Positions 1-54,682 of a DNA stretch of 64,000 nt are shown here, piece by piece. This stretch comes from an uncultured Spirochaetales bacterium (GTDB lineage Bacteria; Myxococcota_A; UBA9160; SMWR01): positions 1,040 to 65,039 of the forward strand of contig CAZZFT010000009.1 in assembly GCA_964653555.1 (NCBI GenBank), in the 5' to 3' direction. Below the pieces are notes generated by a model. It did no database searches. It was not told the origin of the DNA and was given only the letters and a program-made list of their open reading frames with translations. The position numbers and the translations under genes are program-made. Position 1 is the stretch's first letter, and the number at the start of each line of letters is the position of its first letter.

Positions 1-56
1 AGGTGCTGGTGGACGCGCGCGTGTCCGGCGAGGCGCTCGAGTTCCGCAGCGCCTGA
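1..56 (+). CDS. 3' end of an upstream gene (partial, product unknown)
   Basis: Open frame enters the window, ...VLVDARVSGEALEFRSA*, TGA at 54-56. Too short to assign. Confidence 0.25.
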   Translation, partial: VLVDARVSGEALEFRSA

Positions 57-124
57 CGCTCCGCCCGGCGCGAGGGCGCGGACCCGGACGGGGCGCCATC
101 CTCCCGGGCCGAGGCCCTCCAACC

Positions 125-1372
125 GTGATCCTGCCCCCGAGCGCCAACCCGCTGGCGTACCGACTGATCGCCGCGCGCGCGCTGCGCGGCTTCGCGGACG
201 GCTTCGCCAGCGTCCTGCTCGCGGTCTACCTGACGGCGCTCGGCATGACGCCGACGCAGGTGGGCGCCCTGGTGACGGCGACGCTGCTCGGCTCGGCGGC
301 GCTGACGCTCGCGGTGGGCCTCGCCGGAGGGCGGGTCGCGCCGCGGGGGGTGCTGCTCGGCGCCTCGGCGCTGATGCTCGCCACCGGCCTCGGCTTCGCC
401 CTGCTCACGGACTTCTGGCCCCTCGTCCTGGTGGCCTTCGCGGGGACGCTGAACCCCACCGCAGGCGATGTCAGCGTGTTCCTGCCGACGGAGCAGGCGC
501 TGCTCGCCGAGAGCGTCGCCGACGGCGACCGGACGTCCGCGTTCAGCCGCTACAACCTGGGCGGCGCGCTGCTCGGCGCACTCGGCGCACTGGCGGCGGG
601 TCTGCCCGAGCTGGCCGTGCGACAGCTCGGTGCGGACGCGCTGGAGACCCTGCGCGGCGCGTTCATCGCCTATGCGCTCGTGGCGGTGGGCGTGATGGCT
701 CTCTACGCCACCGCGCCGGCACTGCCCGCCCGTCCGCCGTCGCACGGCGCGCCCCTCGCCCGCTCGCGGCGGATCGTTCTCGAGCTCGCCGCCTTGTTCA
801 GCCTCGACTCCTTCGGCGGCGGCTTTGCCGTGCAGTCCCTGCTGGCGCTCTGGCTGTTTCAGCGCTTCGAGCTCTCTCTCGCGGCCGCCGGTTCCTTCTT
901 CTTCACGGCGGGCGTGCTGGCCGCATTCTCCCAGCTCGTCTCCGCGCACATCGCGCGCCGCTTCGGGCTGATCCGGACGATGGTGTACACGCACCTGCCG
1001 GCGAACGTCTTCCTGATCCTGGCCGCGTTCATGCCGAACGCCGGGCTGGCCATCGCCTGCCTGCTGGCGCGGATGTCGCTCTCCCAGATGGACGTTCCCG
1101 CGCGGCAGTCCTTCGTGATGGAGATGGTGCCCGCCGAGGAGCGGTCGGCTGCCGCCAGCGTCACCAACGTCCCGCGCAGCCTGGCCACCGCCCTCGCGCC
1201 GCTGCTCGCCGGCGCGCTGCTCGCCCGCACGAGCTTCGGCTGGCCGCTCGTGATCGGGGGCAGCGCCAAGATCGTCTACGACCTGCTGCTGCTCTCCCGA
1301 TTCCGCCACGCCGAGCGCGAGCTCGCCGGCTCCTCTCTCAACGCCCTGCGAACCCGATCCCCGCACGGGTGA
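125..1372 (+). CDS. MFS transporter
   Basis: 415-aa ORF, GTG start. Multiple hydrophobic helices, Gly/Ala/Leu-rich MFS-like N-terminus (RALRGFADGFASVLLAVYL). Confidence 0.8.
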   Translation: MILPPSANPLAYRLIAARALRGFADGFASVLLAVYLTALGMTPTQVGALVTATLLGSAALTLAVGLAGGRVAPRGVLLGASALMLATGLGFALLTDFWPLVLVAFAGTLNPTAGDVSVFLPTEQALLAESVADGDRTSAFSRYNLGGALLGALGALAAGLPELAVRQLGADALETLRGAFIAYALVAVGVMALYATAPALPARPPSHGAPLARSRRIVLELAALFSLDSFGGGFAVQSLLALWLFQRFELSLAAAGSFFFTAGVLAAFSQLVSAHIARRFGLIRTMVYTHLPANVFLILAAFMPNAGLAIACLLARMSLSQMDVPARQSFVMEMVPAEERSAAASVTNVPRSLATALAPLLAGALLARTSFGWPLVIGGSAKIVYDLLLLSRFRHAERELAGSSLNALRTRSPHG

Positions 1373-1847
1373 GCGGCAGATCGAGAGCGCTGCGCAGCCC
1401 CGGCGGCGCCTCGCAGACGGCGGGCACGGCGTTCACCGCGTGCATCGCGGTGGCCACGTCGGCGGCGTGGACGTGCTCGTCCAGGGTGGCGTCGCGGCGC
1501 TCGAAGCTGGCCAGGTTGACGAGGTGGAGCTGTGGCGAGGGATCGCCCTCGATGCGGACCGTCCAGCCGTCGCGCGGGCGCGGCCAGGACGCGGGATAGT
1601 CCGTGCCCACCGTCCACAGCGCCTCGATCTCGATCAGCGCGCGCCCATCGGCGACGCCGCACCAGCGGTAGCGCTGGCCGCACACGGTTCCCGCCGCGAT
1701 GCGCCCGCCGCGGATCTCGAACGCCTCGCTGGCCGTGACCGGCTCCTGGTGCTCGGTCACCGCGTCGAGGGTCGCGCCGAGGCCGGCGGCCAGCAGCGGG
1801 ATCTGCTGCTGAAACAGGCCGCGGTTGAAGCGAGCGAAGGGGTTCGC
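1338..1847 (-). pseudogene. C-terminal fragment of a DapB-like NAD(P)H-dependent amine dehydrogenase / dihydrodipicolinate reductase family protein
   Basis: Only the last ~170 aa of ORF 1338..2159 look protein-like (...WTVRIEGDPSPQLHLVN...AMHAVNAVPAVCEAPPGLRSALDLPL). The upstream part of the ORF is Arg/Pro/Gly junk with no N-terminal Rossmann region. Confidence 0.4.
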
Positions 1848-1876
1848 CGCGAGCGTCGCCTGCTCGGGCGGGCGGC

Positions 1877-1999
1877 GCGGTGGATCGCCACCACGGCCGC
1901 CTGGTAGTGGCCGCGGAACCGCGCCTCGCGCAGCGTCTTCCCGGCCAGGGGCGAGCCCTCGCCGATCACCGCCTCGAAGAAGGAAGCCCGGTCCGCCCG
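1877..1999 (-). pseudogene. Isolated TrkA-C (RCK C-terminal) domain fragment
   Basis: ~41 aa inside ORF 1757..2425: RASFFEAVIGEGSPLAGKTLREARFRGHYQAAVVAIHR, a typical TrkA-C signature. No transporter body on either side. Confidence 0.5.
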
Positions 2000-2096
2000 C
2001 ACGGCTCGCGATCCGATCGCCGCGGACCCCCGGACACGCGGCGGGAGGCTGGCTCGTGGCGGGCGTCCGGGACCAGCGGGAGGACGATTCCGTGTC

Positions 2097-2385
2097 GGTG
2101 TGCTTCGACAGCGAGCCCTGCGCGAGCGCACCGAGATCCTGGGCGCGCCCGCGCTGCACCTCGCGCTCGCCTCGGACCAGCCGCTCGCCCTGGTCGTGGC
2201 GCGCCTGTGCGACGTGGTCCGGACGGGTCGTCGACCCGCGTGAGCTACGGGATCGCCAACCTCACCCACGCACCCGACCACGCGTCCTGGGCCCCGCTCG
2301 TCCCGGGTCGTCCGATTGAGGTCGAGCTCCGCCTGAACGACGTGGCCCACGCCTTCCCGGCCGGACATCGGCTGCGCCTGGCCCG
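2097..2385 (+). pseudogene. CocE/NonD-family hydrolase C-terminal fragment, frameshifted
   Basis: LRERTEILGAPALHLALASDQPLALVVARLCDV in one frame continues as PDGSSTRVSYGIANLTHAP...VELRLNDVAHAFPAGHRLRLA in another. 2-nt offset at 2217-2218. The catalytic N-terminal part is absent. Confidence 0.55.
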
Positions 2386-2598
2386 AGGGGATCTGAGCGC
2401 GGGCGCGGCGACCGAGAGGCCACACATGTGGCGGATCGCCTCACCGTGGCGTGACAGGCGGGGCACATCGCCCGCCGCGAGACGGACCGATCCCGCCGGC
2501 GCAGGCGCGCGGATCGCTCACCGTTGCCCGGAGCGACACCGATCGCGGTCGGCGGCTTGGAACGGGACGTGCAGAACGCGGGTCGGAGGGAAGACACC

Positions 2599-3075
2599 AT
2601 GCACGGAAGCAGAATCCAGACGATTGCCACGGTCGCCGCGCTGGGCATGTTCGCCGCCGGCTCCCAGCTCTCGGTGGCCGAGACTGCCGTGGCGCAGTCC
2701 TCGACGCCGATCAAGAAGCTGATGGGGGAGAACTTCGGAGGACTCCAGACGATCCTCTATCAGCTCATCAGCGCGAACTACGGAGCCATCCCGGAGCAGG
2801 CCGAGGTGATCCGCCAGCACGCCCTGAAGCTCACGAGCATGGTCCCCGAGTCGGCGAAGAACGATCGGGAGCGCTTCCTCGCCTACGCCAACAACCTGGC
2901 GGCCCACGCGCAGGACATGAAGACGATCTCGCAGACGCTGATCGAGCACGATCGAGGGAAGTCCACGATCGGCGCCGACTATCTGCGCGAGGCGCTGGCC
3001 TCGCACTACGGAGGCATGGTCACGATGTGCGTGGCCTGCCACAACCGCTACCGGCCGTGGCCGGTCCAGCCGTAG
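2599..3075 (+). CDS. Periplasmic class II (c'-/c556-like) cytochrome c
   Basis: ATG at 2599 after a GGAGGG RBS. Signal peptide (IATVAALGMFAAGSQLSVAET), helical body, single CVACH heme motif at the extreme C-terminus. Confidence 0.6.
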   Translation: MHGSRIQTIATVAALGMFAAGSQLSVAETAVAQSSTPIKKLMGENFGGLQTILYQLISANYGAIPEQAEVIRQHALKLTSMVPESAKNDRERFLAYANNLAAHAQDMKTISQTLIEHDRGKSTIGADYLREALASHYGGMVTMCVACHNRYRPWPVQP

Positions 3076-3215
3076 CCGCGCCTCGGAGGTCGGGGGGCGA
3101 TCCCGGGAAGCGGCGCGGTCCGGCGTCGGGACCGGGCGCGCGACACGGTGTACGATCCGTCCGCCTCGGGATGGGCCCGATGGCACGCCCGCTTCGCGAA
3201 GCTCCCGGAGGATCC

Positions 3216-3515
3216 ATGCCCGCGTACCTGATCGTGAACTACAAGGTCGACGACCCCGCTCTCTACGGCGAGTACGCGAGGAGCGCGGGCCCGGCGATGA
3301 AGATCGGGAGCGAGTGCGAGATCCTCGCCCTCGACTCGGCCACCGATCGCATCGAGGGCAACTCGGCTGGGCACCAGACGGTGATCCTCAAGTTCGATTC
3401 GAAGGAGAAGGCGAAGGCCGTCTACGAGTCGAAGGAGTACCAGGCCGTGGTCGGCAAGCGCCTCGACGCGACCTCCCAGCACTTCGCGGTGCTGGTGGAG
3501 GGGATCCCCGGCTGA
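3216..3515 (+). CDS. DUF1330 domain protein
   Basis: 99 aa, MPAYLIVNYKVDDPALYGEY...AVYESKEYQAVVGKRLDATS..., RBS GGAGGA upstream. Confidence 0.75.
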   Translation: MPAYLIVNYKVDDPALYGEYARSAGPAMKIGSECEILALDSATDRIEGNSAGHQTVILKFDSKEKAKAVYESKEYQAVVGKRLDATSQHFAVLVEGIPG

Positions 3516-3549
3516 GCCGGGACCGTCAGAACACCCGGATCGGGTGAGG

Positions 3550-3860
3550 CGTCGGCGCGGGCGGGCTCGAGGCCCAGGGCTACTGCGTGATCGAGGCCAC
3601 CACCGTCCGCGAGGGGATCGCCCGCTCAAGATCTCGCCGACGGGGTTCGGACTGCTGCGGATCCTCGTCCACCACGCGGGACGCGTCGTCACCCACGAGC
3701 AGCTGCTGAACGAGATCTGGGGCCGGTGCACGAGAGCGACACCCAGTACCTGCGCGTCTACGTCGGGCAGCTGCGAGACAAGCTCGGCGACGATCCCGCG
3801 CGCCCCCGATTCATCGAGAACGTGCCCGGCGTCGGCGATCGCTTCATCGAGTCCGATTGA
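3550..3860 (+). pseudogene. KdpE/OmpR-family response regulator remnant (internal deletion plus frameshift)
   Basis: 26 aa of receiver N-terminus (LEAQGYCVIEATTVREGIAR) are joined directly to the winged-helix part (LKISPTGFGLLRILVHHAGRVVTHEQLLNEIWG). A frameshift follows into ...DTQYLRVYVGQLRDKLGDDPARPRFIENVPGVGDRF..*. Confidence 0.6.
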
Positions 3861-3920
3861 GCGGCGAGCGCGTGGGGCGGGGCATCCAGGGGCTCCGGCA
3901 CCAGCCCGAAGCCCCGCGGA

Positions 3921-4883
3921 TTGTGGAAATGGCGCCGGTACACCGGCGGTGACCCCACGCCCAGCTGCTCGCGCAGGGCACCGAGCGGCGCGGGCAGCAG
4001 CGCCTCCCAGTCCAGGGCCGGCGGCCAGGGCGCACGTCGAGCGACCCCGCACTCGGACTGCGCGTCGTCGAGGACTTCGAGGTGGAGCGCTTCAGCCTGT
4101 TCGGCCTACCTCGCGGCGACGAGCGAGACACCGCGACGCGCCTTCGAACGCGCCACGCGTTACGTGCGCATCACCCACGACCGTCTCGACCTCGAGCTGC
4201 GCACCGAGGGTCCGCTGACGGTCTGCCGCACCGGTCTGATGGGATACGAGCGAAGCCGCTCCGAGATCGAGTCCGCCGTGGGCCTGATGGCCAGGCTCGC
4301 GCCTTTCATCGTCGGAGACCTCGAAGAGCTCACGGTGTGGTTCCGCCACCCGGCGACCCACTACTCCGACGAGGTGACTGCGGTGTTCGGCTGTGACGCC
4401 CACTACGACCAGCGCTTCGACGGCATCGCGGGGCCCAGCGAGGGGCTCGACCGGCCGCTCCCGCGCGCGGATTCGGCGCTGTGCGCGCTGCTCGAGGAGC
4501 ACGCCGCGAGCCTGCTCGCCCGCGTGCCGCAGCCCGCGGGCTTCACCGACCGCGTCCGCGAGCGCATCTCGGGCCTGCTGCCGCGCGGCCAGGCCAGCGC
4601 CGAGGGGGTCGCCGAGGCGATGGGGATCAGCCCGCGCACGCTGCGCCGCCGACTCGCCGAGGCGGGCGCGGGCTATCAGCAGGTCCTGGACGAAGTGCGC
4701 TTCGGGCTGGCCGAGAGTGCGATCTCCCCGAAGGGATTGTCGGTCAACGAAGTCGCCTTCCTGCTCGGCTACTCCGACGCCTCGGCCTTCCACAAGGCGT
4801 TCCGTCGCTGGACGGGACGCAGCCCCGGAGCCTACGCGCGCGCGGCGCGATCGGGGCCGGGGCCGGATGGCGCGTCGACCTAG
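3921..4883 (+). CDS. AraC-family transcriptional regulator, 5' part disrupted
   Basis: C-terminal AraC HTH (GISPRTLRRRLAEAGAGYQQVLDEVR...VAFLLGYSDASAFHKAFRRWTGRSPGAY). Homology starts near 4080 (ERFSLFG / YLAATSETPRRAFERATRY lie in different frames). The first ~50 codons of the ORF are not protein-like. Confidence 0.6.
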   Translation: MWKWRRYTGGDPTPSCSRRAPSGAGSSASQSRAGGQGARRATPHSDCASSRTSRWSASACSAYLAATSETPRRAFERATRYVRITHDRLDLELRTEGPLTVCRTGLMGYERSRSEIESAVGLMARLAPFIVGDLEELTVWFRHPATHYSDEVTAVFGCDAHYDQRFDGIAGPSEGLDRPLPRADSALCALLEEHAASLLARVPQPAGFTDRVRERISGLLPRGQASAEGVAEAMGISPRTLRRRLAEAGAGYQQVLDEVRFGLAESAISPKGLSVNEVAFLLGYSDASAFHKAFRRWTGRSPGAYARAARSGPGPDGAST

Positions 4884-6442
4884 GACGCGATCCGGGGCAC
4901 CACGTCGCCCGCGGCGGAGCGCGAGACCTCCGCCTTCCGCCGCTCGCCGGGCTTCGCGCGCGTCTTCTTCCGCTTCGCAGAGGCGGGCGGGGTCTCCACC
5001 GCGATCTCGACCGCCGCCGTGCGGTCCGCCATGTAGCGGTTGACGGTGGCGCGGCGCAGATCCTCGAAGGCGACGCAGACGTCGTCGTGGAAGGCACGGA
5101 TGTCGGGAACCAGCTCGTAGTCCGCGTTGAACCCCCAGCACAGCTTGCCGTCGTAGCTGAACAGCGCGATGCCGAGCCCGACGCCGGGGATCAAGGGCAC
5201 CATCGGGTACATGCCGAGCATCGGAGCGCCCACCACGTAGAGCGGAAACTGCGGTCCGGGGATGTTGGTGACGATCGTGTTGGCCGGCCCGTTGGCGATC
5301 GACACCCCGAGCTCGATCAGCGCCGGGGGGAGCCACTCGGCGATCTTCATCACGGTGTCCGCACCGAGCACCGCCTCGGAGCGCTTCAGCTCCCCGGTGC
5401 GCCGCGCGATCGCCTCGATCTGGGCGAGCGGATCCTTCTCGGCGAGCGGCAGCGCGACGATCCAGGTCGAGACGTGGTTGCCCTGACGGCGCTCGTCCGA
5501 GTCCTTCCGCACGCTGACCGGCGCGGCGACGCGGAAGTCGAGCTTCGCCGGGTCGACGCGGCGGCGGAAGAAGTAGCGGCGCAGCGCGCCGGTCACCGTC
5601 GCCAGCACCACGTCGTTCACCGAGCAGCCGAGCACGGCGCGCAGCTCGAGAACGTCGTCGAGCGGCATGGTGAGCCAGTCGAAGCGCCGGTGCGGGCTCA
5701 GATCGCCGTTGAGCGGCGTCTGGGAGGCGGGCTCCAGCGTGAAGCGCGCGAGTTCGGCGAGCGCGCGCGCCCGGCGCAGCAGGTCGCTCGCCAGCGGGGG
5801 ATCGCCCTCCGCGCGCGCCAGCAGCTTGCGGACCGCGTCGAAGGGCTGGCGGATCCGTTCGGCGATCGAGTCGAGGAGCAGCTCCGTCCCGCTCGGCGCC
5901 GGCCGCGGCATGTAGGCGAGCGGCTCCTGGAAGTCGATCGCCGGCGAGGGCGACATCAGGATCTGGGCCAGGTCGGCTCCGGCGACGCCGTCGATCATGC
6001 AGTGGTGCACCTTGTTCAGGAGCGCGAACTGCTCGCCGCCCTCGAGCCCCTCGATCACCCAGATCTCCCACAGCGGGCGGGAGCGGTCGAGCCGCCGGGC
6101 GAGGATGCGGCTGGCCAGCTCGCGCAGCTGCTCGAGCGTGCCCGGGCGCGCCAGCGAGAGGTGGCGCACGTGGTAGCCGATATCGAAGTGGCGGTCGTCC
6201 ACCCAGACGGGCCAGCCCTCGACCGGCGTCCAGGCCAGCTTCTGGCGGTAGCGCGGGATCCAGTGCAACACCGACTCGATCGCGCGCCGGTAGCGCGAGA
6301 CATCCACGCCCCCGTCGCCGTTGCGCAGCGTTCCCGACTCGAGGATCGCCACCGCCCCGACGTGCATCGGCGCGTTCTCGCGCTCGGCCCACAGGAACGT
6401 CGCGTCCAGTGTCGAGAGGCGCTCGTAGGTGTATCGAGCCAC
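4880..6442 (-). CDS. Wax ester synthase / diacylglycerol acyltransferase (WS/DGAT) family
   Basis: GTG at 6442 after GGGAGG. N-terminus RLSTLDATFLWAERENAPMHVGAV, catalytic HHCMIDGVAG (HHxxxDG). Confidence 0.8.
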   Translation of the reverse strand: MARYTYERLSTLDATFLWAERENAPMHVGAVAILESGTLRNGDGGVDVSRYRRAIESVLHWIPRYRQKLAWTPVEGWPVWVDDRHFDIGYHVRHLSLARPGTLEQLRELASRILARRLDRSRPLWEIWVIEGLEGGEQFALLNKVHHCMIDGVAGADLAQILMSPSPAIDFQEPLAYMPRPAPSGTELLLDSIAERIRQPFDAVRKLLARAEGDPPLASDLLRRARALAELARFTLEPASQTPLNGDLSPHRRFDWLTMPLDDVLELRAVLGCSVNDVVLATVTGALRRYFFRRRVDPAKLDFRVAAPVSVRKDSDERRQGNHVSTWIVALPLAEKDPLAQIEAIARRTGELKRSEAVLGADTVMKIAEWLPPALIELGVSIANGPANTIVTNIPGPQFPLYVVGAPMLGMYPMVPLIPGVGLGIALFSYDGKLCWGFNADYELVPDIRAFHDDVCVAFEDLRRATVNRYMADRTAAVEIAVETPPASAKRKKTRAKPGERRKAEVSRSAAGDVVPRIAS

Positions 6443-6587
6443 GACCTCTACCCTCCCCGTCCCGCTGAAGCAAGGTCGGTGCCAGAGGTCGGGCCGTGCC
6501 GGGCGCGAGCGGGCCACGCGCTGCCCGGGAAAGGACCAGCGCCTGCTCAGAAGGCGGGCATCGGCGCCGCGCGGCGTCGGCGCCGCG

Positions 6588-7271
6588 TCAGGACACCTCG
6601 AGCTCGCCGCGGCTCGCCATCACCCGCCGCGACACCAGCACGTAGAGCGCGAAGCCGGCGAGGCACGCCGGCGCGATCCAGTGCAGATTGCGGGAGACAG
6701 CCTCCTGTCCGCGGTAAACCAGCTCGGCATAGCTGAGCTGCGCGGTCTGGCGGCCGATCGAGAAGCCGATCGCCGTCAGGATCGCGCACCAGGTTCCCGC
6801 ACCGAGACCGGTCCAGAGCGAGAAGCTCGCGAGCGGCATCCGGGCGATGCCGGCGGGGATCGAGATCAGCTGCCGGATCGCGGGCAGCAGCCGACATACG
6901 AAGGTCGCGCCGGCGCCGTAGCGACGGAACACCTCCTCGGCCCGGTGCAGCTTGGACGGAGGCAGGAAGAAGTAGCGCCCGTAGCGCTCCAGGAAGGCCC
7001 GGCCCAGCCGCAGCGACAGGAAGTAGTTCAGATAGGCACCGGCGAGCGATCCGGCGACCCCGCAGGCGAGGGCGAGCAACGCGTCGGGGAGTGGCCGACC
7101 GAGGGAGAGACCTCCGCGCGCCGCCAGGAAGCCGGCGGGGATCATCACCACTTCGCTCGGGAAGGGGACGAAGGAGCTCTCGACCGCCATGAACAGGAAG
7201 ATCAACAGGAAGCCCCAGACGGGGGCGAGGGCGGCGATCGCTTCCAGGTGGCGAACGAGCAGGTCCGTCAT
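6588..7271 (-). CDS. DedA-family membrane protein
   Basis: 227 aa, FLFMAVESSFVPFPSEVVMIPAGF...RLLPAIRQLISIPAG. The ATG overlaps the stop of the upstream RND gene (ATGA). Confidence 0.85.
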   Translation of the reverse strand: MTDLLVRHLEAIAALAPVWGFLLIFLFMAVESSFVPFPSEVVMIPAGFLAARGGLSLGRPLPDALLALACGVAGSLAGAYLNYFLSLRLGRAFLERYGRYFFLPPSKLHRAEEVFRRYGAGATFVCRLLPAIRQLISIPAGIARMPLASFSLWTGLGAGTWCAILTAIGFSIGRQTAQLSYAELVYRGQEAVSRNLHWIAPACLAGFALYVLVSRRVMASRGELEVS

Positions 7272-16966: not shown

Positions 16967-17419
16967 CTAGCGGCGGCGCAGACCCAGTGCGACGAGACCG
17001 AAGCCGAGCAGCAGCGCCGTACCCGGCTCGGGGACCACCACCACGCTGAACACGCTGTTGAAGGTCGCCCGATCGCCGGCGGAGAGCGTGAAGCGGTGCG
17101 TGATGCCGATGTCGCTGGAGGCGCCGGGTCCGGGAATCGACCCCGGGGCCACGCCTGCCGACTGGTTGTCGACGGCCGTGCCGAGCAGGCCCGCTACCAA
17201 GCTGTAGGGATCGCCGTAGAGCGACAGCGCGCCGCTGCCGTCGATCTCTCCGTTGTAGAGCGGGGTGGCCGGTGACGGTGCCCAGGGTGGCCGATCCCGA
17301 CCCGTTCGCGTCGGACACCGAGAGCGCCGACGACACGTACATCAGCGACGTGGGCAGCACCGGCAGCACCGGCACGGACACCGAAAGCGTGAAGGTCTGC
17401 GTCGGCGCACCGCGGCCGC
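16967..17419 (-). pseudogene. PEP-CTERM protein remnant (no N-terminus, frameshifted)
   Basis: ...TFTLSVSVPVLP...SDANGSGSATLGTVTG in one frame continues as TPLYNGEIDGSGALSLYGDPYSL...VVVVPEPGTALLLGFGLVALGLRRR* in another (shift near 17262). It starts directly at the stop of the upstream gene with no signal peptide. Confidence 0.6.
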
Positions 17420-26567: not shown

Positions 26568-26601
26568 AGGATAGGCAGTCTAAGCTCTGGATTCGCGCCA
26601 G
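26568..26601 (+). repeat. Copy 1 of the AGGATAGGCAGT... terminal repeat (34 bp retained)
   Basis: aggataggcagtctaagctctggattcgcgccag. The outer boundary is identical to copies 2, 4 and 5, and CAGG upstream is shared with copy 2. Confidence 0.8.
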
Positions 26602-26900
26602 CCGGACCGATCGACAACCTCGTTCTCGTGGAGCTCGCCAGCGACGGCACCACGGCGGACCAGATCGTCCGCGTAGGCCGCGAAATCGTCGCCGAAGTCG
26701 AAGCCGGCGCAGAAGCTCCGGCCCGCGCCGCGCAGCACGATCACGCGGACCCCGGGATCGCGGTTGGCGCGGATCACCGCGGCCTCGATCTCGTCCGGCA
26801 TCGGCGACACGATCGTGTTGAGCCGCTCGGGACGGTTGAGCGTGATGCTGGAGACCGGACCGTCGGTCGCGTACAGCAGGGTCTCGAATGCCTTTTCCAT
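26580..26900 (-). pseudogene. Enoyl-CoA hydratase/isomerase (crotonase) family, N-terminal ~90 aa only
   Basis: MEKAFETLLYATDGPVSSITLNRPERLNT...VIVLRGAGRSFCAGFDFG, then it degenerates and stops inside or next to repeat copy 1. A full crotonase is ~260 aa. Confidence 0.7.
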
Positions 26901-26949
26901 GACTCTCTCCCTTCCTTTGTCTCGTTCGCTTGACGGAGTAAAGTGAATC

Positions 26950-43928: not shown

Positions 43929-44132
43929 CTCCTGCTGCGCGCGTGCCGCGTCGATGCGCTCGCGGAACTCGGCGACCACGGGCCAGCGCGCCTGCCTCGC
44001 CTCCTCGAGGCTCCGGAGGCGGAGCGAGCGGCGAAGGTCGTGGCCGAGCGCGCTACGAAGGCTCGCCGGGACGGCGACCTTCACCCACCAGTTGCCGTTG
44101 CGCTGGAAGAGGTAGCGTCTGTCGCTCGTCGT
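43929..44132 (-). pseudogene. Tyrosine-integrase N-terminal (DUF6538-type arm-binding) fragment
   Basis: DRRYLFQRNGNWWVKVAVPASLRSALGHDLRRSLRLRSLEEARQARWPVVAEFRERIDAAR. No catalytic domain follows, and it is in frame with and directly upstream of the nfnA-like gene. Confidence 0.45.
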
Positions 44133-44277
44133 TCCCACTCCACTCGCCCTCCCCGCTCCTCCTGGGCCTGCGTGTACCTTTCGACCGAGGCCGGCTCGCG
44201 CGCCTGTACCTTTCCCGTTGCAACCCCTGTACCCGCGGCATCGGCCACACGACCCCGCGACCCGGCTCCGGACGGTG

Positions 44278-44309
44278 TCGATGCCCCAATCGAGGGCCTC
44301 GATGCCCCA
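44278..44309. repeat. Direct repeat TCGATGCCCCA (x2) flanking the palindrome ATCGAGGGCCTCGAT
   Basis: Read directly: tcgatgcccca-atcgagggcc-tcgatgcccca. Lies ~150 nt upstream of the integrase fragment. Function unknown (arm-site or att-like?). Confidence 0.35.
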
Positions 44310-44640
44310 CCCCTCGGCCCGGGCGAGGCGGAGTGCCACAGGAGCGCGGGAGCCCGCGATCAGCCGGCCTCGCTCCAGGTTAGTTCCGCGCGACGGTGTT
44401 CCGCAGGTGCAGTCGAGCAGACGCCAAGATCGGCGTGGGTTCATGTGGTTCCCTCCACGAGGTTGCCGATTGACTTCGATGCAACGCGTCGAAGCAAATC
44501 GGGAACTACATCGGGAGGTCAGCGGTATGAAAAATGGCCTCTGGAGTAGTGTGATCGCGGCGTGCCTGGTGATGTGTTCCTTGCCAGCGATTGCCCAGAA
44601 CAGTCAAACGTAAAAACGCCAGATACCCGCTGCGGGGTTT

Positions 44641-44710
44641 CGCCGCGGGTTCAGTTGACGTGATGCCACGTCTCGGCCCCGGCGAGAATCCGGCTTGTAC
44701 TGCCTATCCT
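44641..44710 (-). repeat. Copy 3 of the terminal repeat, inverted orientation
   Basis: The reverse complement reads aggataggcagtacaagccggattctcgccggggccgagacgtggcatcacgtcaactgaacccgcggcg. The terminus is at 44710 and the interior points to lower coordinates. Confidence 0.8.
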
Positions 44711-44904
44711 AGAACCGCGCGCAGCTTCCACCAGTCCTGCATGCGCGGGGGCTACTACCAGTTCGGTGGGCCGACTGCTACGGCGCGTGTGCTCGATCGC
44801 TCGCTCGAAGCTCCCGTACCCGCAGGGTGTTCTTGACCTGGGTTGACCATCGGTGTTACACGGAAACGCGTGGTCAACACCGTCGTGACCCGAGGAGGTT
44901 TCCC

Positions 44905-45612
44905 ATGCGCGTTCAGATCACCGCCCTTCTCATGCTCCTCTCGATGGCGTGCGCATCGCCGCCCCCGCCTCCGGAGAGCCCGGACCTCTCGGTGATCGGA
45001 GCTCGCGTTCGGATCACGCGGGCCGTGCTGGGTCCGCAGCGTACCGACTATGCCTACTTCGTGCGCCTCGAGGAAGCCGGCGAGCTCCCTTTCGCGGGAG
45101 AACTCATCCGGTCGAACTTCGCGAAGGACGGATACGCGTTCCTGTTCAATGCACCTCCCGGCCGTTATGCGGTGATCTCCGCCGGCTACTTCGTCGAGAC
45201 CGAGGGAAGTGCCATGACATCGGTCGGAGGCGGAATCAGCGTCGGCCCGGGGCTGTCCCTCCACAGCACGATCAACATCTACCTGCCCGAGACTTCGATC
45301 GAGAAGACGACCGTCTCCGTGGAAAGTGGTGAATGGGCCTTCCTGGGCGACGTCGTCCTCGATCGTGTGGACTGGGAGCAGGCCGACGAGGCGCAACGGC
45401 GCTACTCCGAGCGGCTGGTTCCGGGATACCAGGACATGAACATCCTGGAGAAGGCGTTCAAGGTGGGACGTCACGACCCCGGAACGGAGCGTTCCCTCGA
45501 CCGGAGCGACGCGGGTCTGGCGAGCTTCATGGAGACCTCGCGCGAGATCGCGGGCGAGGAGTGGGCGCACACGCTTCGGAGTCCGGTGGCGGCGGCGCCT
45601 TCCGAGGACTGA
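44905..45612 (+). CDS. Hypothetical lipoprotein
   Basis: GAGGAGG RBS. MRVQITALLMLLSMACASPPPPP (lipobox LSMAC). Confidence 0.6.
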   Translation: MRVQITALLMLLSMACASPPPPPESPDLSVIGARVRITRAVLGPQRTDYAYFVRLEEAGELPFAGELIRSNFAKDGYAFLFNAPPGRYAVISAGYFVETEGSAMTSVGGGISVGPGLSLHSTINIYLPETSIEKTTVSVESGEWAFLGDVVLDRVDWEQADEAQRRYSERLVPGYQDMNILEKAFKVGRHDPGTERSLDRSDAGLASFMETSREIAGEEWAHTLRSPVAAAPSED

Positions 45613-45639
45613 GCCGCTACCTGCGTTTCACCCCGCATG

Positions 45640-46010
45640 GGGCGCCGCGGGCCCGGCGCGCCGATGCCGCTGTACCAGTAGCGGTTCTGAAGGCCGCGGC
45701 TCTCGAGCTCCGAGACCGGAAGCAGATCGAAGAGCTCGTAGCTCTTCGTCACGGTCAGGCTGGGATCCCGCTCGATCGTCAGCGTGCCGAACGGCAGCTC
45801 GTGGATCGGGGGCGCCTGGAGGCCGACCGTGCCCTCCTTCGTGCGCGCGAGGGCCAGCACCAGGGCGCGGTTGTAGAGGTCGGCAGCGACGTACTGGTGC
45901 GCGTCGAAGATGCCGCTCGGCTGGCGGCCGTCCTCCGCGAACAGGAACGAAGCCTTGTCGAATCGATTGCCGGCCCGAAGTTGGGCGTGGCCGCAGATCC
46001 CGTCGAGCGT
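45640..46010 (-). pseudogene. Start-less gene fragment of unknown family
   Basis: Protein-like frame ...GICGHAQLRAGNRFDKASFLFAEDGRQPSGIFDAHQYVAADLYNRALVLALARTKEGTV...LQNRYWYSGIGAP. It begins at the codon after the stop of the upstream OMP gene, and its 3' end overlaps the lipoprotein gene. Confidence 0.3.
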
Positions 46011-46607
46011 TCAGAAGCGGTACTGTAGGCCCGCTGTCCCCGACACGTAGTCGAGGTATTTCACGGAGCCGGTCGGCAACACGTACGAGGCCCCGACGGT
46101 CACGGTGATGTTCTTCGTGATGTAGACGTCGACCCCGGCGCCGAAGCGAGCGGCGAAGCCCGTCGCATCTGCGGAGGTTCCGAGCCCCAGAGAGTCGTTG
46201 AAATCTGCCCCGAGGACGCCCGCGCCGGCGAGCAGAAAGACCTGTCCATTCCTCCAATGCGGCAGGAATAGCTTGGCGTCGGCGGTCAAGCTCCAGACCT
46301 TGATATCGCCGATCTTTACAGGTCCTTCGACTTTGAATTTGGCCAGCCATTCGAAGTCCGCTTCCACGCCGAGGAGCGGATGGAATCGATAGCCCGCTCT
46401 CGCCTGCAATCCCGGGCTCAGATTGGTGTCGGTATTGACACCCGTTTCATCTTTGATCTCATCATCCAGCCTCACCATACCGGCCAGGGCGGCCGCGAAC
46501 CCGATGTACGGACCTGAACGATCGACGTAGCCATAGGGATTCCCGGCTGCGGCAGGCGATGGAACTGCAAGTGTCAACAAAGAAAAGATCAGTGCGAAAC
46601 GAATCAT
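46011..46607 (-). CDS. Outer-membrane beta-barrel protein (OmpA-like barrel / OMP_b-brl)
   Basis: 198 aa. Signal peptide MIRFALIFSLLTLAVPSPAAA, alternating beta-strand pattern, C-terminal ...GLQYRF. Confidence 0.7.
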   Translation of the reverse strand: MIRFALIFSLLTLAVPSPAAAGNPYGYVDRSGPYIGFAAALAGMVRLDDEIKDETGVNTDTNLSPGLQARAGYRFHPLLGVEADFEWLAKFKVEGPVKIGDIKVWSLTADAKLFLPHWRNGQVFLLAGAGVLGADFNDSLGLGTSADATGFAARFGAGVDVYITKNITVTVGASYVLPTGSVKYLDYVSGTAGLQYRF

Positions 46608-46630
46608 GCGTTCCCCCAAGAAGTGGCTAG

Positions 46631-47602
46631 TCACCCTGTCCCTGCGCGCCTTCGCTGTACTCCGATGCCGATCAGCCCCGCCGCGACGAGGAGGCCCGTA
46701 CCGGGCTCGGGGACGCTGGCGACGCGAAAACCCACCCAGTTGAACTCGTTCGATGGGTCGCCGGCGAACCGGCTCGTCACTCCGAGGCTGATCGGGCTGC
46801 CGTAGGTCTGGAACCCCCCGCCCCGCAGGCCACGGTCCGAGCCGATGATGATGGCCTCGGTCCACTCCCAGATATTCCCGCCCTGGTCGAAGGTGCCGTA
46901 GGGGCTCGCCGAGCCCGTGTAGCTGCCCACGTCGGTCAGGTCACCGACCGCGTTGAGGCAGTTGGCGGTGTTCGCCGTCGCCCCCGGCGCGGCGCACACG
47001 GTCTGCGTGTCCGTCCCGGCGGGATAGTCGAAGTAGCTCGTGGTCAGCGCGTCGTAGTACGCTGCCTTGTACCACTCGTCCTCGCTCGTGAGGAAGATGT
47101 TGGCGCCGGCGTTGCGCGTCACTGTCAGGCCGTTGCTCGGGGCCGCGGTCCCGCCGAGCAGCGTGTAGGCCCCCGTCTCCGTGTCCCCGCTCCCCTGGCC
47201 GTTGTGCAGCCAGTTCGCGAAGCGCAGGCTGTCGAAGAACGACACGTAGTTCACCGGCTTGTTCTCGCGGCCGCCGATGGCGCTGTACGTGAAGCTCCCC
47301 GAAGTGCCGCTGCGCGTGATGCCGCCGAAGCCCGAGCCCATGCCCGTGTTGTAGAGGCCCAGCGGGTCCGCGGCGGCCTTCGCGTTCAGGAACTCGGCAT
47401 ACTGGGCGTTCGTAACCTCATACTTCGAGATCTGATACACGTGGCCAACGGCACCGAAGCAGCCCAGCGCCCCTTGTACATCACAGGCGTTGCCCGGGTT
47501 GCCCACGGTGACCCAGTCGATCGCGACGGCCGAGGCCGCGTTGGGATCGATCAACAGCAAGAGAGCCAACAGCACGGAGTAGCGCGAAAGCAGGGCGGTC
47601 AT
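46631..47602 (-). CDS. FGE-sulfatase (SUMF1) domain protein with PEP-CTERM anchor
   Basis: ATG 47602. YEVTNAQYAEFLN, GGNIWEWTE, RGGGF. C-terminus VPEPGTGLLVAAGLIGIGVQRRR. Confidence 0.75.
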   Translation of the reverse strand: MTALLSRYSVLLALLLLIDPNAASAVAIDWVTVGNPGNACDVQGALGCFGAVGHVYQISKYEVTNAQYAEFLNAKAAADPLGLYNTGMGSGFGGITRSGTSGSFTYSAIGGRENKPVNYVSFFDSLRFANWLHNGQGSGDTETGAYTLLGGTAAPSNGLTVTRNAGANIFLTSEDEWYKAAYYDALTTSYFDYPAGTDTQTVCAAPGATANTANCLNAVGDLTDVGSYTGSASPYGTFDQGGNIWEWTEAIIIGSDRGLRGGGFQTYGSPISLGVTSRFAGDPSNEFNWVGFRVASVPEPGTGLLVAAGLIGIGVQRRRAGTG

Positions 47603-48252
47603 TGCCGTCTCCTCCCCGGTATCGTGCGTCCAGCCTACACCCGCTTGAGATACTGCTGGGAGGCACCAATCCAGTTCCAGAGCCCGCGGGGGGGCTAAGG
47701 TGACGATCCTCGACGCCATGGCCGACGTGGCTCTGTTTGGCCGCTGGTTCCAGGCCCCGACGAATAACCACGCCTTGAGCGCCAGAGTCCAGAGCGCATC
47801 ATTTGATCCCTCCGATCCTTTCTTTGTCGGTGCTGCATATCGCGTGCCATGCGAGTGGAGACTTTCCAACACAGCTCAATGGCTTTGGCGCGACATAGCG
47901 CCCCAACGGCCAAATTCGTGCGGCCAAACGCCCGCCGTGATTCTCGTCGAGGGTGAGCGGATCGCGGCGATGAACCCCGCCATCGTCCCGAAGAGGGCAG
48001 CAGGGTGACGCCGCCCAGGTCGATCTCGCGGCCCGGGTCCCCGGTCTGGCCGGGTGGGCTGCGGTCGGCCTGGCCCTGGCGGCGGGACGGGCGCGGGGGG
48101 CGGTCCGGCCCCGTTGAGGCGCCCGGCGGCATCCGGTTCGCCGGCTCAGCCGACGGAGTCGTCGGAGGCGCTCGGGAATCGGGCTCGATCCCGCTTGACC
48201 TCGAGGTCCTCCCGTGTTCCTCTTGGAAGTGTCACCTCACGAGAGGATCCGG

Positions 48253-48645
48253 ATGCGCCGCGCGACCCTCCTGGCATGGCTGACCCCACTCCTGACCGGG
48301 CCGCTGGCCCTGCTCGTGCTCGTACACCCGGTCGCCGCCGACGTCCAGGCCGCCACCGGACGCCTGGTCGGCCTGCTCGTCGTCGAGCCGACCTCGAACG
48401 AGTACGGCCTCTACCGCGGCTCGATCACCGTGGGCGACTCGATCGGCGGCTTCGCCACCTACCACTGGGGCGGATCGTACTGTCCCGGCAAGGATCTGTC
48501 GGAAGCCAGCGTGGCCGCTCTCCATCGGGCCCTCGATAACCCGCGCGTCGTGGTCCAGCCCTTCACCCTGAACGGGCAGGGCGGGGCGCTGTGCGTCGTG
48601 GCCGTCCGCTACATCCTGCGCAGCGAGCAGGGTCTGTTCCCGTAG
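48253..48645 (+). CDS. Small secreted hypothetical protein
   Basis: 130 aa, signal peptide MRRATLLAWLTPLLTGPLALLVLVHPVAAD. Confidence 0.5.
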   Translation: MRRATLLAWLTPLLTGPLALLVLVHPVAADVQAATGRLVGLLVVEPTSNEYGLYRGSITVGDSIGGFATYHWGGSYCPGKDLSEASVAALHRALDNPRVVVQPFTLNGQGGALCVVAVRYILRSEQGLFP

Positions 48646-48658
48646 GCGGGACGTGGGC

Positions 48659-49465
48659 ATGCGCCGCGCCCGCCGCGTGCTTCCGCTGCTCGCGACCGCG
48701 CTCGTCGCGCCCGCCGAGGCTTTACAGCTCTCCGTGGGCGACTGGGTGATCGCCGATCCCGATGCGAACGCGGTCTATCGCGTCGATCCCAACGTCGGCA
48801 GGCCCGAGCCGATCTCGCAGGACGGTCTCTTCCGCCAGCCGACGGGCGTGGCCATCGAGGCATCGGGCGACATCCTCGTCGCCGATCCGGAGGCCAACGC
48901 GATCTTCCGGGTCGACCCCGCCACCGGGGACCAGAGCGTGGTTTCCTCCTCCGGCAGCTTCCGCTGGCCGACCGGTGTCGCCGTCGACGCGGGCGGCGAT
49001 CTGCTGGTGAGCGATCCGGACGCCGACGTGGTCTTTCGTGTCGATCCCGCGACGGGCGACCAGACGCTCGACACCGTCGCAGCCGACGCGGGCGCCGTCT
49101 TCGCGGCCGGCGTGACGGTGGAGTCGTCAGGCGACTACGTCCTCGCCGACCCGGACGCGGCCGGCCTGCGGCGTTGGGATCCCGACGCGACCACGGGATC
49201 GACGGTCTCCGCCGGCGGGCTCTTCCTCTGGCCCACCGATGCGACGGTCGACGACGGCGACGATCTGCTCGTCGCGGATCCGGATGCGAACGGATTCGTG
49301 CGCGTGGATCCGGCGACCGGAGACCAGACGAGCGAAGGCCCCGGGGATGCGTTCCTCTACCCGACCGGAATCGCCTTCGTGCCCGAGCCGGGCGCCACCT
49401 GGCCGCTGGCGGGAGGCCTGGCGATGCTCGCCCTCGCGGGGTGGGCCAGGCGTTCCCGGACCTGA
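48659..49465 (+). CDS. NHL-type beta-propeller repeat protein with PEP-CTERM anchor
   Basis: Repeated ...PTGVA.D..GD.LV.DPDAN.VFRVDPATGDQ... units. C-terminus VPEPGATWPLAGGLAMLALAGWARRSR. GTG 48653 is the alternative start. Confidence 0.6.
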   Translation: MRRARRVLPLLATALVAPAEALQLSVGDWVIADPDANAVYRVDPNVGRPEPISQDGLFRQPTGVAIEASGDILVADPEANAIFRVDPATGDQSVVSSSGSFRWPTGVAVDAGGDLLVSDPDADVVFRVDPATGDQTLDTVAADAGAVFAAGVTVESSGDYVLADPDAAGLRRWDPDATTGSTVSAGGLFLWPTDATVDDGDDLLVADPDANGFVRVDPATGDQTSEGPGDAFLYPTGIAFVPEPGATWPLAGGLAMLALAGWARRSRT

Positions 49466-49557
49466 AGGCGTCTTCGCTCCAGAACGAGCCCGCTGGGCTT
49501 GCGGACGCCGCCGGCTCGCCAGGGTCCGGTCCAGCGTGTCATGATGCGCGCAACACG

Positions 49558-49870
49558 CGTGCGGTCGCCTCCCGCGGCGACTGGATGGGGGTTTGTCCTG
49601 GCGTCCGGAGATCGCGAGCTCGAGATCGTCGTCTGGGGAGCCACCGGCTTCACGGGGCGGCTCGTCGCCGAGTACCTGCTCGAGCGCTACGGCACCGAGT
49701 CCTTCCGCTGGGCTCTCGGCGGCCGGCAGCTGCGCAAGCTCGAGAGCGTGCGCGACGCGCTCGGCCCGGCCGCCGCGGTGCTCCCGCTCGTGACGGGCGA
49801 CGCCGCCGACCCCGGATCCATGGCCGCGCTGGCCTGCCGCACGCGCGTCGTGTGCACCACGGTGGGTCCG
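49558..49870 (+). pseudogene. Saccharopine-dehydrogenase-like / trans-acting enoyl reductase N-terminal fragment, cut off by repeat copy 4
   Basis: ELEIVVWGATGFTGRLVAEYLLERYG...LPLVTGDAADPGSMAALACRTRVVCTTVGP, then the repeat. Such proteins are ~400 aa. The start codon is uncertain. Confidence 0.6.
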
Positions 49871-49927
49871 AGGATAGGCAGTATCAGCTCGCGCCAGGGC
49901 CGAGAAGCAGAGTTATGTCAACCGCGG
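49871..49927 (+). repeat. Copy 4 of the terminal repeat (internal 9-nt gap)
   Basis: aggataggcagtatcagctcgcgccagggccgagaagcagagttatgtcaaccgcgg. Confidence 0.8.
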
Positions 49928-50211: not shown

Positions 50212-50386
50212 GCGGATCCGGCGAATCTGCCCGTCCGCCCCCGGGGATGCTTCGGCGTCCGCTGGGCCCCGGCGCCGCCCTGATCCCCCGACCGCCCCGC
50301 TCTCGCAGCTCGGGACCCATGTTCCCGGGCCCGCGGTCTAGACTGGTCCCCGGGCCCGCGGAGGGCCTACACCCGGGAGGGGTCCC

Positions 50387-52917: not shown

Positions 52918-54219
52918 CTAGATGTCGATTACCAGATCTTTCCGGGGGCGAGAGCAGCAAGTCAACAGGTTTCCGGCCGCCGGAGGCTCGAGCGGTTCGG
53001 GATCATACTTCACCGACCCAGAGATCAACCCGCACTCGCACGTATGGCAAACCCCGGTCCGGCAAGACCACCGGACCGGGACGTCACAGGCTTCGGCGAG
53101 TTCCAGCAGGCTGTGGAACTTCGAGTCCCAGGAAACCGTAAGCCCGGCGCGAGCAAATGAAATTCTTGGACCTTCGCCGGGCGACCCGGCAGGGGCGTGC
53201 GGTAGGCGGCGCGGCGCCTTCTTCACACCCGGCGTAAGGGAGTTGCCTGAACCGAAAATCTCCGTGTGGATGCGATCACGGACCACGCCCCAACCAGCGA
53301 GCCCGGCCGTGAAGTCCTCAAGGAAGGCGGGAGGGCCGCACAGATAAAACTCGCATTCGCGGGGTACGCCCAGTTTTTGGAGGACCGTGACAGTCAGCCG
53401 GCCGGCAGCATCGTAGTCAACGCCCAGCCGGTCAGTCGCGTCGGGCCGGCTGTACTGGACATGGCTTCGGGCGTGGGGCAGCTTAGCCAGCAAATCGCGT
53501 GCCTCTCGGGCAAAGGGATGATCCAGGCGGTTGCGGGCTCCATAGATCCACCAGACCGGGCGCGGCGATGCGTGTGCTGCTAGCGCGTGGAGCATCGCCA
53601 TCACCGGAGTCGCGCCCACGCCGGCGCTCAACAGCACCACAGGAGACTCGCCGGGTCGCAGGATGAAGGCGCCGCGGGGTGCGCTGACATCCAGGACATC
53701 GCCTGCACGAAGCCGCGTGCTCAGGTAAGTGCTGGCGATTCCGTGCGGTTCCTCCTTAATGGTTATGCGATAACGACCGGCATCCGGCAGATCGGACAGC
53801 GAGTAGCTGCGCAAGACCGGAGGCGGGTCGCCTTGGGGACGGAGTCGCAACACCACGAACTGCCCGGGCAGAGGGACGGTCAAAGGACGATCGTCCACCG
53901 GCTCCAGCACCAGTGAGACAACACTGCTGCTCTCGCGATCCATGCTGGCCACTCGCAGAGGCCGGAATCCGGGGACAGCCGTGAGCATCTGCTCAGGTAG
54001 CGCTAGTCCGGCATTCCCTGTGCGCGACCCCGGCTGCGTCATCTGCCGGAGAAGAGCCTCAAAGGAAGACTTCCAGCCCGGGCTCAGGGACGGAATGCGC
54101 AAAGCCCGCTCAAGCTCTTCTTTGGCGGGTCCGGGAAGGTAGAGCAGCCCGTCGACCGCGGCGACCGTGAGGCGTTCAGGGCCCTCGGCGACTTTGACGA
54201 TTTCATCGCTGGCGCCCAC
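52918..54219 (-). CDS. FNR-like FAD/NAD-binding + C-terminal 2Fe-2S ferredoxin module (3' part of a frameshifted MOSC fusion gene)
   Basis: RSYSLS, LLSAGVGATPV, C-terminal CRTGVCHTCECGL. The N-terminus (G)ASDEIVKVAEGPERLTV is the normal continuation of the MOSC domain ORF. Confidence 0.75.
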   Translation of the reverse strand: MGASDEIVKVAEGPERLTVAAVDGLLYLPGPAKEELERALRIPSLSPGWKSSFEALLRQMTQPGSRTGNAGLALPEQMLTAVPGFRPLRVASMDRESSSVVSLVLEPVDDRPLTVPLPGQFVVLRLRPQGDPPPVLRSYSLSDLPDAGRYRITIKEEPHGIASTYLSTRLRAGDVLDVSAPRGAFILRPGESPVVLLSAGVGATPVMAMLHALAAHASPRPVWWIYGARNRLDHPFAREARDLLAKLPHARSHVQYSRPDATDRLGVDYDAAGRLTVTVLQKLGVPRECEFYLCGPPAFLEDFTAGLAGWGVVRDRIHTEIFGSGNSLTPGVKKAPRRLPHAPAGSPGEGPRISFARAGLTVSWDSKFHSLLELAEACDVPVRWSCRTGVCHTCECGLISGSVKYDPEPLEPPAAGNLLTCCSRPRKDLVIDI

Positions 54220-54682
54220 CTCGCCCTCTTTCTAGGACGCGAAAATAGAACCCCGGGCGGTGATGAGCGACCAGCAAAGCCGCCATCCTGGGCTCATCCA
54301 TTCGTATGCCAACGCGGTAGCAGGTCACACGCGGCTGCGTAACTTCGAACAGGGCGCCGCCGATGCGATAGCGATCGCCGACGCAGACCTCGCTGTCGGC
54401 CAGGCCTTCCACCGTGAAGTTCTCTCCGAATTGCCCGAATTCGAAATCGGCTCGCTTCAGTTCGCGCTGCCAATAGTGATAGGAATCCATCTGGTAGACA
54501 AACACAGCCCGGTGTTCTCCACCGTGACCGGCCAGATCACCCTGTGCGTCACCATCGATGTTAAGCCGCCGAACCAGGCGCCGTCCCTGCACCGGCTCCT
54601 TCCACACGGACGTGAAGACAGTCTTACCGCGCCACGTGATCTCGCGCGGAAGACCCACGTTGACTGACAACAACCGTGCCAT
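54203..54682 (-). CDS. MOSC domain (5' part of the same frameshifted gene)
   Basis: MARLLSVNVGLPREITWRGK...GDLAGHGGEHRAVFVY...FEVTQPRVTCYRVG...PGFYFRVLE, then premature RGRGGRQR*. GAGGAGG RBS. Confidence 0.75.
   Translation of the reverse strand: MARLLSVNVGLPREITWRGKTVFTSVWKEPVQGRRLVRRLNIDGDAQGDLAGHGGEHRAVFVYQMDSYHYWQRELKRADFEFGQFGENFTVEGLADSEVCVGDRYRIGGALFEVTQPRVTCYRVGIRMDEPRMAALLVAHHRPGFYFRVLERGRGGRQR

Follow-up and report, generated by a model that had tools for sequence, protein, structure and literature searches.

Positions 1338 to 4100 of the stretch analyzed here carry the relics of six unrelated genes, packed into 2.7 kb around two intact small genes. The stretch comprises 64,000 nucleotides (nt) of contig CAZZFT010000009.1 from an uncultured bacterium, and we refer to it at its full length as the window. 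We read the segment as a local gene-loss hot spot on the chromosome of a Myxococcota-like organism, where dispensable genes would have been destroyed in place by deletions and by single-base insertions or deletions (indels), and we put the probability of this reading at about 80%. Dispensable bacterial genes are known to be inactivated and then to undergo deletional erosion (Kuo & Ochman 2009, PMC2817411; Kuo & Ochman 2010, PMC2916853; Danneels et al. 2018, PMC6054270). The locus is a new instance of this known process. It represents ordinary gene decay at a variable site, with an unusual local density.

Six gene remnants and their intact neighbors

Related contigs, designated by L numbers, were retrieved by WS/DGAT (genomes) and by DUF1330 (metagenomes). 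The closest relatives of the WS/DGAT gene of the window (orthologues in L002, L003, L005, L071, and L082) are 72-78% identical in protein and come from metagenome-assembled genomes of uncultured Myxococcota or "Deltaproteobacteria". The locus and its flanks are laid out as follows.

125-1372, plus strand: MFS transporter, intact, left flank (Pfam MFS_1, E = 6.6e-26, profile 3-336 of 347; Logan gene call of 415 amino acids [aa])
1341-1874, minus strand: remnant 1, C-terminal part of a DAP_DH/DapB-like gene (Pfam DAP_DH_C)
1874-1978, minus strand: remnant 2, TrkA_C stub of 35 aa (Pfam TrkA_C)
~1986-2383, plus strand: remnant 3, internal piece of a CocE/NonD-type S15 hydrolase (Pfam PepX_C, tblastn)
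2599-3075, plus strand: cytochrome c556 / class II cytochrome c, intact, 158 aa (homologues; weak match to Pfam Cytochrom_C_2)
3216-3515, plus strand: DUF1330 gene, intact, conserved anchor of the locus (Pfam DUF1330)
3557-3860, plus strand: remnant 4, KdpE-like response regulator of the OmpR family (Pfam Trans_reg_C, tblastn)
3866-4042, minus strand: remnant 5, Coq4-family C terminus (68-69% identity to L093 and L083 proteins)
4037-4883, plus strand: remnant 6, AraC-family regulator, truncated at its 5' end (Pfam Arabinose_bd and HTH_18)
4880-6517, minus strand: WS/DGAT acyltransferase, intact, right flank and synteny anchor (Pfam WS_DGAT_cat and WS_DGAT_C, full profiles)

In all six pieces, homology covers only part of a gene, as judged by profile or orthologue coverage. 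Disabling lesions were also evident in DNA and protein alignments to L082, L083, L093, and L005, which showed no fewer than five junctions left by deletions as well as four indels of 1 nt each. The remnants lie on both strands and are separated at their junctions by 0 to ~10 nt, and the 3' end of the MFS gene and the DAP_DH remnant overlap by ~35 nt. In a frame plot of guanine-plus-cytosine (GC) content, third-position GC was 0.85-1.0 inside each fragment, with abrupt switches of frame or strand at about 1860, 1980, 2120, 2220, 3620, 3720, 3870-4040, and 4100. A preliminary description of this DNA, made from the sequence alone, had proposed fragments of unrelated genes at six sites, in mixed orientation and without intergenic spacers, amid two intact small genes. 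That outline was borne out: profile or homology searches gave significant matches at every site, and both small genes are full length.

The structure of the segment is not an artefact of one assembler. Run SRR9710542 yielded two Logan contigs with 100% identity to the window (L101 over 1-2750 and L001 over 2721-6421), and a third contig, from the different run SRR8557365, has the same identity over 963-2441 (L102). Each junction and each frameshift of 1338-4100 is contained within at least one of them. This bears on the explanation that the segment is a chimera of strains or loci created by metagenome assembly, with consensus errors as its frameshifts. The source does look metagenome-derived, as are all the relatives; exact proteins of the window are on record at NCBI, JGI, and Logan from a contig of 73,938 bp (P0001, P0030). 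The meeting of two Logan contigs at 2721-2750 could mark a branch in the assembly graph. However, independent k-mer assemblies of two runs were identical to the window over 1-6421 and 963-2441, including all junctions and all four indels. None of the indels falls inside a long homopolymer in DNA alignments to orthologues, which argues against sequencing error as the cause of the frameshifts. Six chimeric joins in 2.7 kb, each within a gene, would be extraordinary. We therefore regard an assembly artefact as highly improbable.

The CocE remnant (Pfam PepX_C, E = 2.7e-10) corresponds to residues 366-492 (127 aa) of the 673-aa orthologue in L082, and both ends of the gene are missing. By tblastn against L082, L002, and L003 (65-84% identity), it reads in frame 1, then 3, then 2. 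DNA alignment placed two separate 1-nt deletions at ~2123 and ~2216, and similarity to CocE ceases right after 2383. The hydrolase family and plus strand had been called correctly before. However, the piece had been taken for a C terminus with a 2-nt frameshift, and it is an internal fragment with two -1 deletions.

The response regulator lacks its first ~44 codons and 108 internal codons (68-175), so that a receiver piece is joined directly to the winged helix. The receiver piece (3557-3625) corresponds to residues ~45-67 of the orthologue. Its DNA is identical to that of L082 at 53 of 67 positions, with an alignment score of 52 compared with 19.9 ± 2.3 for shuffled sequences (z about 14). 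In tblastn against the L005 and L003 regulators, the winged helix was found in two parts, 3622-3725 (residues 176-210) and 3726-3857 (residues 211-254). These match the two halves of Pfam Trans_reg_C (profile 2-38 and 40-74), and DNA alignment revealed a 1-nt deletion between them at ~3725. A fused and frameshifted KdpE-like regulator is also what the preliminary description had read here. In a phmmer search with the frameshift-corrected winged helix, the best PDB matches were KdpE structures (3zq7 and 4kfc, E = 4e-19 to 2e-18), and the next OmpR-family members followed at E = 2.5e-10. The winged helix is thus closest to KdpE (PDB 3zq7, 4kfc, 4kny). However, the intact orthologue in L005, L003, and L082 is divergent from a cluster of TonB, DUF3450, and ExbD genes and does not adjoin kdpD or kdpFABC, and the window copy is no more than a broken relic. 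No Kdp genes were detected in the 7.4 kb of L005, L003, and L082, where three open reading frames (ORFs) had no Pfam match. The idea that the 7.4 kb missing from the window had been a kdp operon was rejected, as Pfam searches of the L005 genes gave TonB, DUF3450, two ExbD proteins, and an ECF sigma factor.

The minus-strand piece at 3866-4042 had been described as a possible helix-turn-helix (HTH) tail of an AraC protein. A remnant is indeed present, but it belongs to the Coq4 family. Its identity to a 261-aa protein in L093 is 68% over residues 200-258 (E = 3e-22), and its identity to the L083 orthologue is 69% (E = 2e-30). A Pfam search with the intact L093 protein gave Coq4 (E = 1e-14). The piece itself matched no Pfam family even at E ≤ 10, including HTH_18 and HTH_AraC, and the AraC assignment was dropped. 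The stub retains the C-terminal 59-74 codons, and its open frame continues to a stop at 3758-3760, antisense to the 3' end of the regulator. An apparent second copy of the Coq4 tail at 3479-3574 (tblastn, E = 7e-6) was also rejected: most of it runs antisense to the conserved end of the DUF1330 gene, and outside that coding sequence its DNA similarity to Coq4 was at the level of shuffled sequences. Separately, L082 has a second, divergent Coq4-like gene at 4235-4858 (34% identical to the L093 Coq4), upstream of TetR, beta-propeller, and CocE genes.

Disruption of the 5' end of the AraC gene had been noted in the preliminary description as well, and alignment to the L083 orthologue gave its form. 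Positions 4037-4102 encode residues 79-100, and the sequence from 4104 onward, in the next frame, encodes residue 101 and beyond. A 1-nt insertion therefore lies at ~4103, and the first ~67-78 codons are missing. With the frameshift corrected, Arabinose_bd scored 84.8 bits instead of 64.9, and the profile match grew from 50-185 to 39-185 (of 185). A 239-aa ORF with an intact HTH survives (4164-4883).

At the left end, a DapB-like C terminus and a TrkA-C piece on the minus strand were both recovered where they had been reported. The DAP_DH remnant (Pfam DAP_DH_C, E = 2.2e-12, profile 63-197 of 206) ends at a stop codon at 1338-1340. It keeps ~178 C-terminal codons, its N-terminal Rossmann half is gone, and homology begins precisely at ORF residue 96-98. 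The C-terminal parts of database relatives of 220-293 aa (P0002-P0011) share 60-71% identity with it. The sole near-identical database entry, P0001, is a 140-aa ORF call of the same remnant, and the best full-length matches were only 69-71% identical in a protein database that also contains the proteins of this genome. The TrkA_C stub lies in a different frame from the DAP_DH remnant and covers half a domain (E = 1e-6, 29 bits against a gathering cutoff of 27, profile 2-36 of 71). No near-identical protein that could represent its parent gene was found in a database of 5.8 billion sequences.

Of the two intact small genes, DUF1330 (Pfam E = 5.8e-20, profile 1-93 of 94) is 72-83% identical to its closer relatives. 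The cytochrome has a C-terminal CxxCH motif and 254 homologues, mostly of 150-159 aa, which some sources name cytochrome c556; the best of these are 62-65% identical over 96-99% of the query. The contexts of these homologues showed no synteny with the locus; the one exception is a distant c556 with WS/DGAT genes nearby. In this distant relative (L105, 6001-10348), a 64%-identical cytochrome c556 adjoins a CBS-domain gene and two WS/DGAT genes, which may point to an earlier association between c556 and WS/DGAT neighborhoods. Also, L101 ends and L001 begins within the cytochrome gene of the window, with a 30-nt overlap at 2721-2750. The assembly graph may branch there, and this could reflect strain variation.

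Intact counterparts in relatives and a proposed history

The same interval in the relatives had the following gene orders.

L082, L003, and L005: DUF1330, ECF sigma factor, ExbD, ExbD, DUF3450, TonB (with interspersed ORFs lacking a Pfam match), regulator, WS/DGAT
L082, further upstream: full CocE, DnaJ-like, TM2, then DUF1330
L083 and L093: DUF1330, intact Coq4-like gene (convergent), AraC (divergent from Coq4)
L002: CocE, TM2, sigma factor, WS/DGAT
L071: DnaJ-like, TM2, DUF1330, WS/DGAT

L003 likewise has a full or long CocE gene upstream, and the distance from DUF1330 to the C-terminal part of the regulator is ~7.4 kb in L082, L003, and L005. Intact syntenic orthologues were found for CocE, the regulator, Coq4, and AraC. 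Because intact genes occupy the same positions in relatives, these four of the six remnants appear to be relics that decayed in place. Gene content between CocE and WS/DGAT differed in every relative (L002, L003, L005, L071, L082, L083, and L093), and the TonB cluster, the sigma factor, DnaJ-like, TM2, DUF1330, and Coq4/AraC were each present in some and absent in others. This suggests that the locus is generally indel-prone, a hot spot across the clade.

The window retains relics of the regulator and of Coq4/AraC, and the simplest ancestor would therefore have had DUF1330, the sigma factor, the TonB cluster, the regulator, Coq4, AraC, and WS/DGAT in that order. In full, the ancestral order might have been CocE hydrolase, DnaJ-like, TM2, DUF1330, ECF sigma factor, a TonB/ExbB/ExbD/DUF3450 cluster, KdpE-like regulator, Coq4-like, AraC, and WS/DGAT. 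At least five deletions (~0.3 to ~7.4 kb) and four single-base indels would then account for the present arrangement. The largest deletion, of ~7.4 kb, would have run from ~40 nt past the DUF1330 stop codon into codon ~45 of the regulator, removing the ECF sigma factor and the TonB/ExbD cluster. A deletion of ~0.32 kb would have taken codons 68-175 from within the regulator. Another, of ~1 kb, would have taken out ~196 codons at the 5' end of Coq4, the first ~67 codons of AraC, and the ~215-bp divergent intergenic (promoter) region, leaving Coq4 and AraC joined head to head at 4037-4042 without a spacer. CocE would have been cut down by the loss of codons 1-365 and 493-673, and the DnaJ-like and TM2 genes would have gone with them. 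On the left side, the remaining CocE piece would have been joined to the TrkA_C stub and half of the DAP_DH gene beside the MFS gene, and the presence of cytochrome c556 in place of DnaJ-like and TM2 would reflect at least one replacement. The MFS, cytochrome c556, DUF1330, and WS/DGAT genes would have stayed intact under selection, and the pieces between them would be young pseudogene debris awaiting further deletion. We infer the order and number of these events, and also their cause, which would be a relaxation of selection acting alongside the deletion bias common in bacteria.

A mobile element is not indicated, because the window has no tRNA and no Rfam family, and repeats in 1-7000, including microhomology at the junctions, were at chance level. 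There was also no integrase or transposase domain among the proteins scanned in our partial survey of the window.

The left third requires separate consideration, because no relative examined had an intact DAP_DH or TrkA_C gene at the syntenic position. Since the best full-length DAP_DH matches were only 69-71% identical and TrkA_C had no database match, these pieces were not recently copied from intact genes. An ancestral neighborhood that the sampled relatives do not represent may have left them as relics, or they may be DNA that came from rearrangement or break repair. A patchwork origin of the latter kind, in which the DAP_DH half and the TrkA_C stub were brought in by rearrangement or as break-repair filler (for example, by nonhomologous end joining) and joined to CocE, would fit several observations. 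In no relative do DAP_DH, TrkA_C, or this MFS gene lie near CocE, and the DAP_DH homologues that could be placed were in unrelated contexts without synteny to this locus. Three pieces of differing origin and frame abut within ~0-10 nt, and the TrkA_C piece, at only ~105 nt, is of a size typical of filler. However, the protein database that includes this genome's proteins had no near-identical intact source gene, and in-place deletions fully explain the right two-thirds of the segment. Furthermore, two successive deletions in an ancestral neighborhood not preserved by the sampled relatives would look identical. We consider a patchwork origin unlikely.

Selection and the age of the remnants

The ratios of nonsynonymous to synonymous substitution (dN/dS; Nei-Gojobori method, compared with relatives) were 0.18 for the CocE remnant, 0.30 for the regulator, and 0.16 for Coq4. 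For the intact genes they were 0.16-0.35 for DUF1330 (0.16 against L082) and 0.34 for WS/DGAT. The remnants did not approach the value of 1 expected under relaxed selection and matched their intact neighbors, in a comparison that mostly spans the time before inactivation. Most of the divergence would then predate inactivation, which suggests that the genes were broken recently relative to the split from these relatives. The preserved codon periodicity agrees with recent breakage.

The low ratios also raise the question of whether the fragments were kept for a function, either by supplying the two intact small genes with promoters, terminators, or antisense transcripts or by encoding short single-domain products (a stand-alone winged helix or a truncated AraC, for example). 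Remnant dN/dS is as low as that of intact genes, the 239-aa AraC ORF has a complete HTH, and ORF callers predict 140-aa DAP_DH_C and 44-aa Trans_reg_C products. However, frameshifts break the winged helix, the CocE piece, and AraC, and Coq4 and AraC have lost their divergent promoter region. The short forms are conserved in no relative; there are either full-length genes or nothing at these positions. There were no promoter-like or terminator-like sites in 1200-5000, and no RNA family was found. Retention for function is therefore very unlikely.

Some points weigh against in-place destruction of dispensable genes as a complete account. With no relative carrying an intact DAP_DH or TrkA_C gene here, in-place decay is unproven for the left third, which may instead reflect a rearrangement or the capture of DNA. 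Protein identity to the relatives is only 72-83%, too low for base-exact junctions, and the exact ancestral junctions and microhomologies are unreadable. Deletion alone is insufficient, because cytochrome c556 sits at the position of DnaJ-like and TM2 in relatives, which calls for a minimum of one replacement or insertion. A dN/dS well below 1 is equally expected if the pieces are still under selection, and neutrality is not provable in this way. Loss of function of the remnants is likewise a prediction from their sequences, and the surviving AraC ORF retains its HTH.

The locus offers a clean, anchored example of how bacterial genes disappear. It has large deletions, an internal deletion, and a divergent-promoter deletion, the last of which kills two genes at once, as well as single-base indels, and the "before" state can be read from the intact orthologues of relatives. 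For annotation, the 140-aa DAP_DH_C, 44-aa Trans_reg_C, and 239-aa AraC ORFs are better treated as pseudogene fragments than as genes.

Comparable systems and the rest of the window

The remnants resemble other bacterial pseudogenes under deletional bias, which are disabled by frameshift or truncation and then whittled by deletions, with young remnants lying beside intact, selected neighbors. They differ in their high density, with six in 2.7 kb and several bearing three separate lesions. Also, the host looks like a large-genome, high-GC, environmental bacterium and not a host-restricted pathogen or symbiont. Mycobacterium leprae has a pseudogene-rich genome shaped by recent reductive evolution, and its relics are comparable. 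Sodalis glossinidius, an example of bacteria that became host-restricted recently, too has many recognizable relics with a codon usage signal, 1-nt indels, and larger deletions (PMC7067036). In contrast to both of these species, the 64 kb considered here gave no sign of host association, reduced GC, or, in the partial survey, insertion sequence (IS) expansion. The locus is also like the plasticity zones found between anchor genes, in that the interval from CocE/DUF1330 to WS/DGAT varies in each relative. However, it has no integrase, tRNA, IS element, or flanking repeats, and the variation is mainly differential loss.

We also made a partial survey of the whole window by checking suspicious short coding pieces against Pfam. 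This incomplete survey yielded five further disrupted genes.

26595-26948, minus strand: N-terminal stub of an enoyl-CoA hydratase (Pfam profile 6-64 of 251)
35647-35904 and 35834-36319, plus strand: HlyIII gene, apparently split by a frameshift (profile 3-67 in one frame, 73-224 in another)
49550-49891, plus strand: NAD(P)-binding N-terminal stub, weak match (Pfam profile 1-70 of 184)
52921-54706, minus strand: MOSC (54215-54706) and YiiM_3-alpha/FAD_binding_6/NAD_binding_1/Fer2 (52921-54231), contiguous, in different frames
59880-60089, minus strand: glyoxalase/Ble-like N-terminal stub (Pfam profile 2-28 of 121)

The MOSC and reductase parts are probably one gene frameshifted at ~54225. With the six remnants described above, at least 11 disrupted genes were verified in 64 kb. 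The preliminary description was therefore right that there are others beyond the locus, but its figure of about 20 was not reached in this incomplete survey. Its view that such a load far exceeds what is normal for a free-living bacterium is unproven. Many other genes in the window look intact, including those for an MMPL transporter, a Ser/Thr kinase, and methylmalonyl-CoA mutase. When short coding runs were counted by a crude measure based on composition, the window did not stand apart from 22 related loci.

A broader possibility is that the locus samples recent erosion across the whole genome of a high-GC, large-genome Myxococcota lineage, in which 1-nt indels and deletions would recently have disrupted roughly every fifth or sixth gene. 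We think this doubtful. If the density did hold genome-wide, this uncultured lineage would be in early genome erosion and would merit a dedicated study. A recent bottleneck, a change of lifestyle toward dependence on a host or partner, or a DNA repair defect would then come into question, in a clade not known for reductive evolution.

There were a few minor observations elsewhere in the window. Its GC content is ~70% overall, with dips at 44000-47000 and 53000-57000 (0.61-0.67, versus 0.70-0.75 elsewhere). The second dip holds the frameshifted MOSC gene (0.61-0.65 in the MOSC-reductase region), a UDG-family gene, and an SDR gene, and it may be acquired DNA. Positions 59560-59967 (plus strand) look by eye like an aminotransferase N terminus and had no Pfam match. 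Predicted secreted proteins with PEP-CTERM-like tails, recognized by eye (VPEPG...hydrophobic...RRR), are encoded at 16970-17311 and 46634-47677 on the minus strand and at 48605-49462 and 50369-52771 on the plus strand. These tails suggest an exosortase system.

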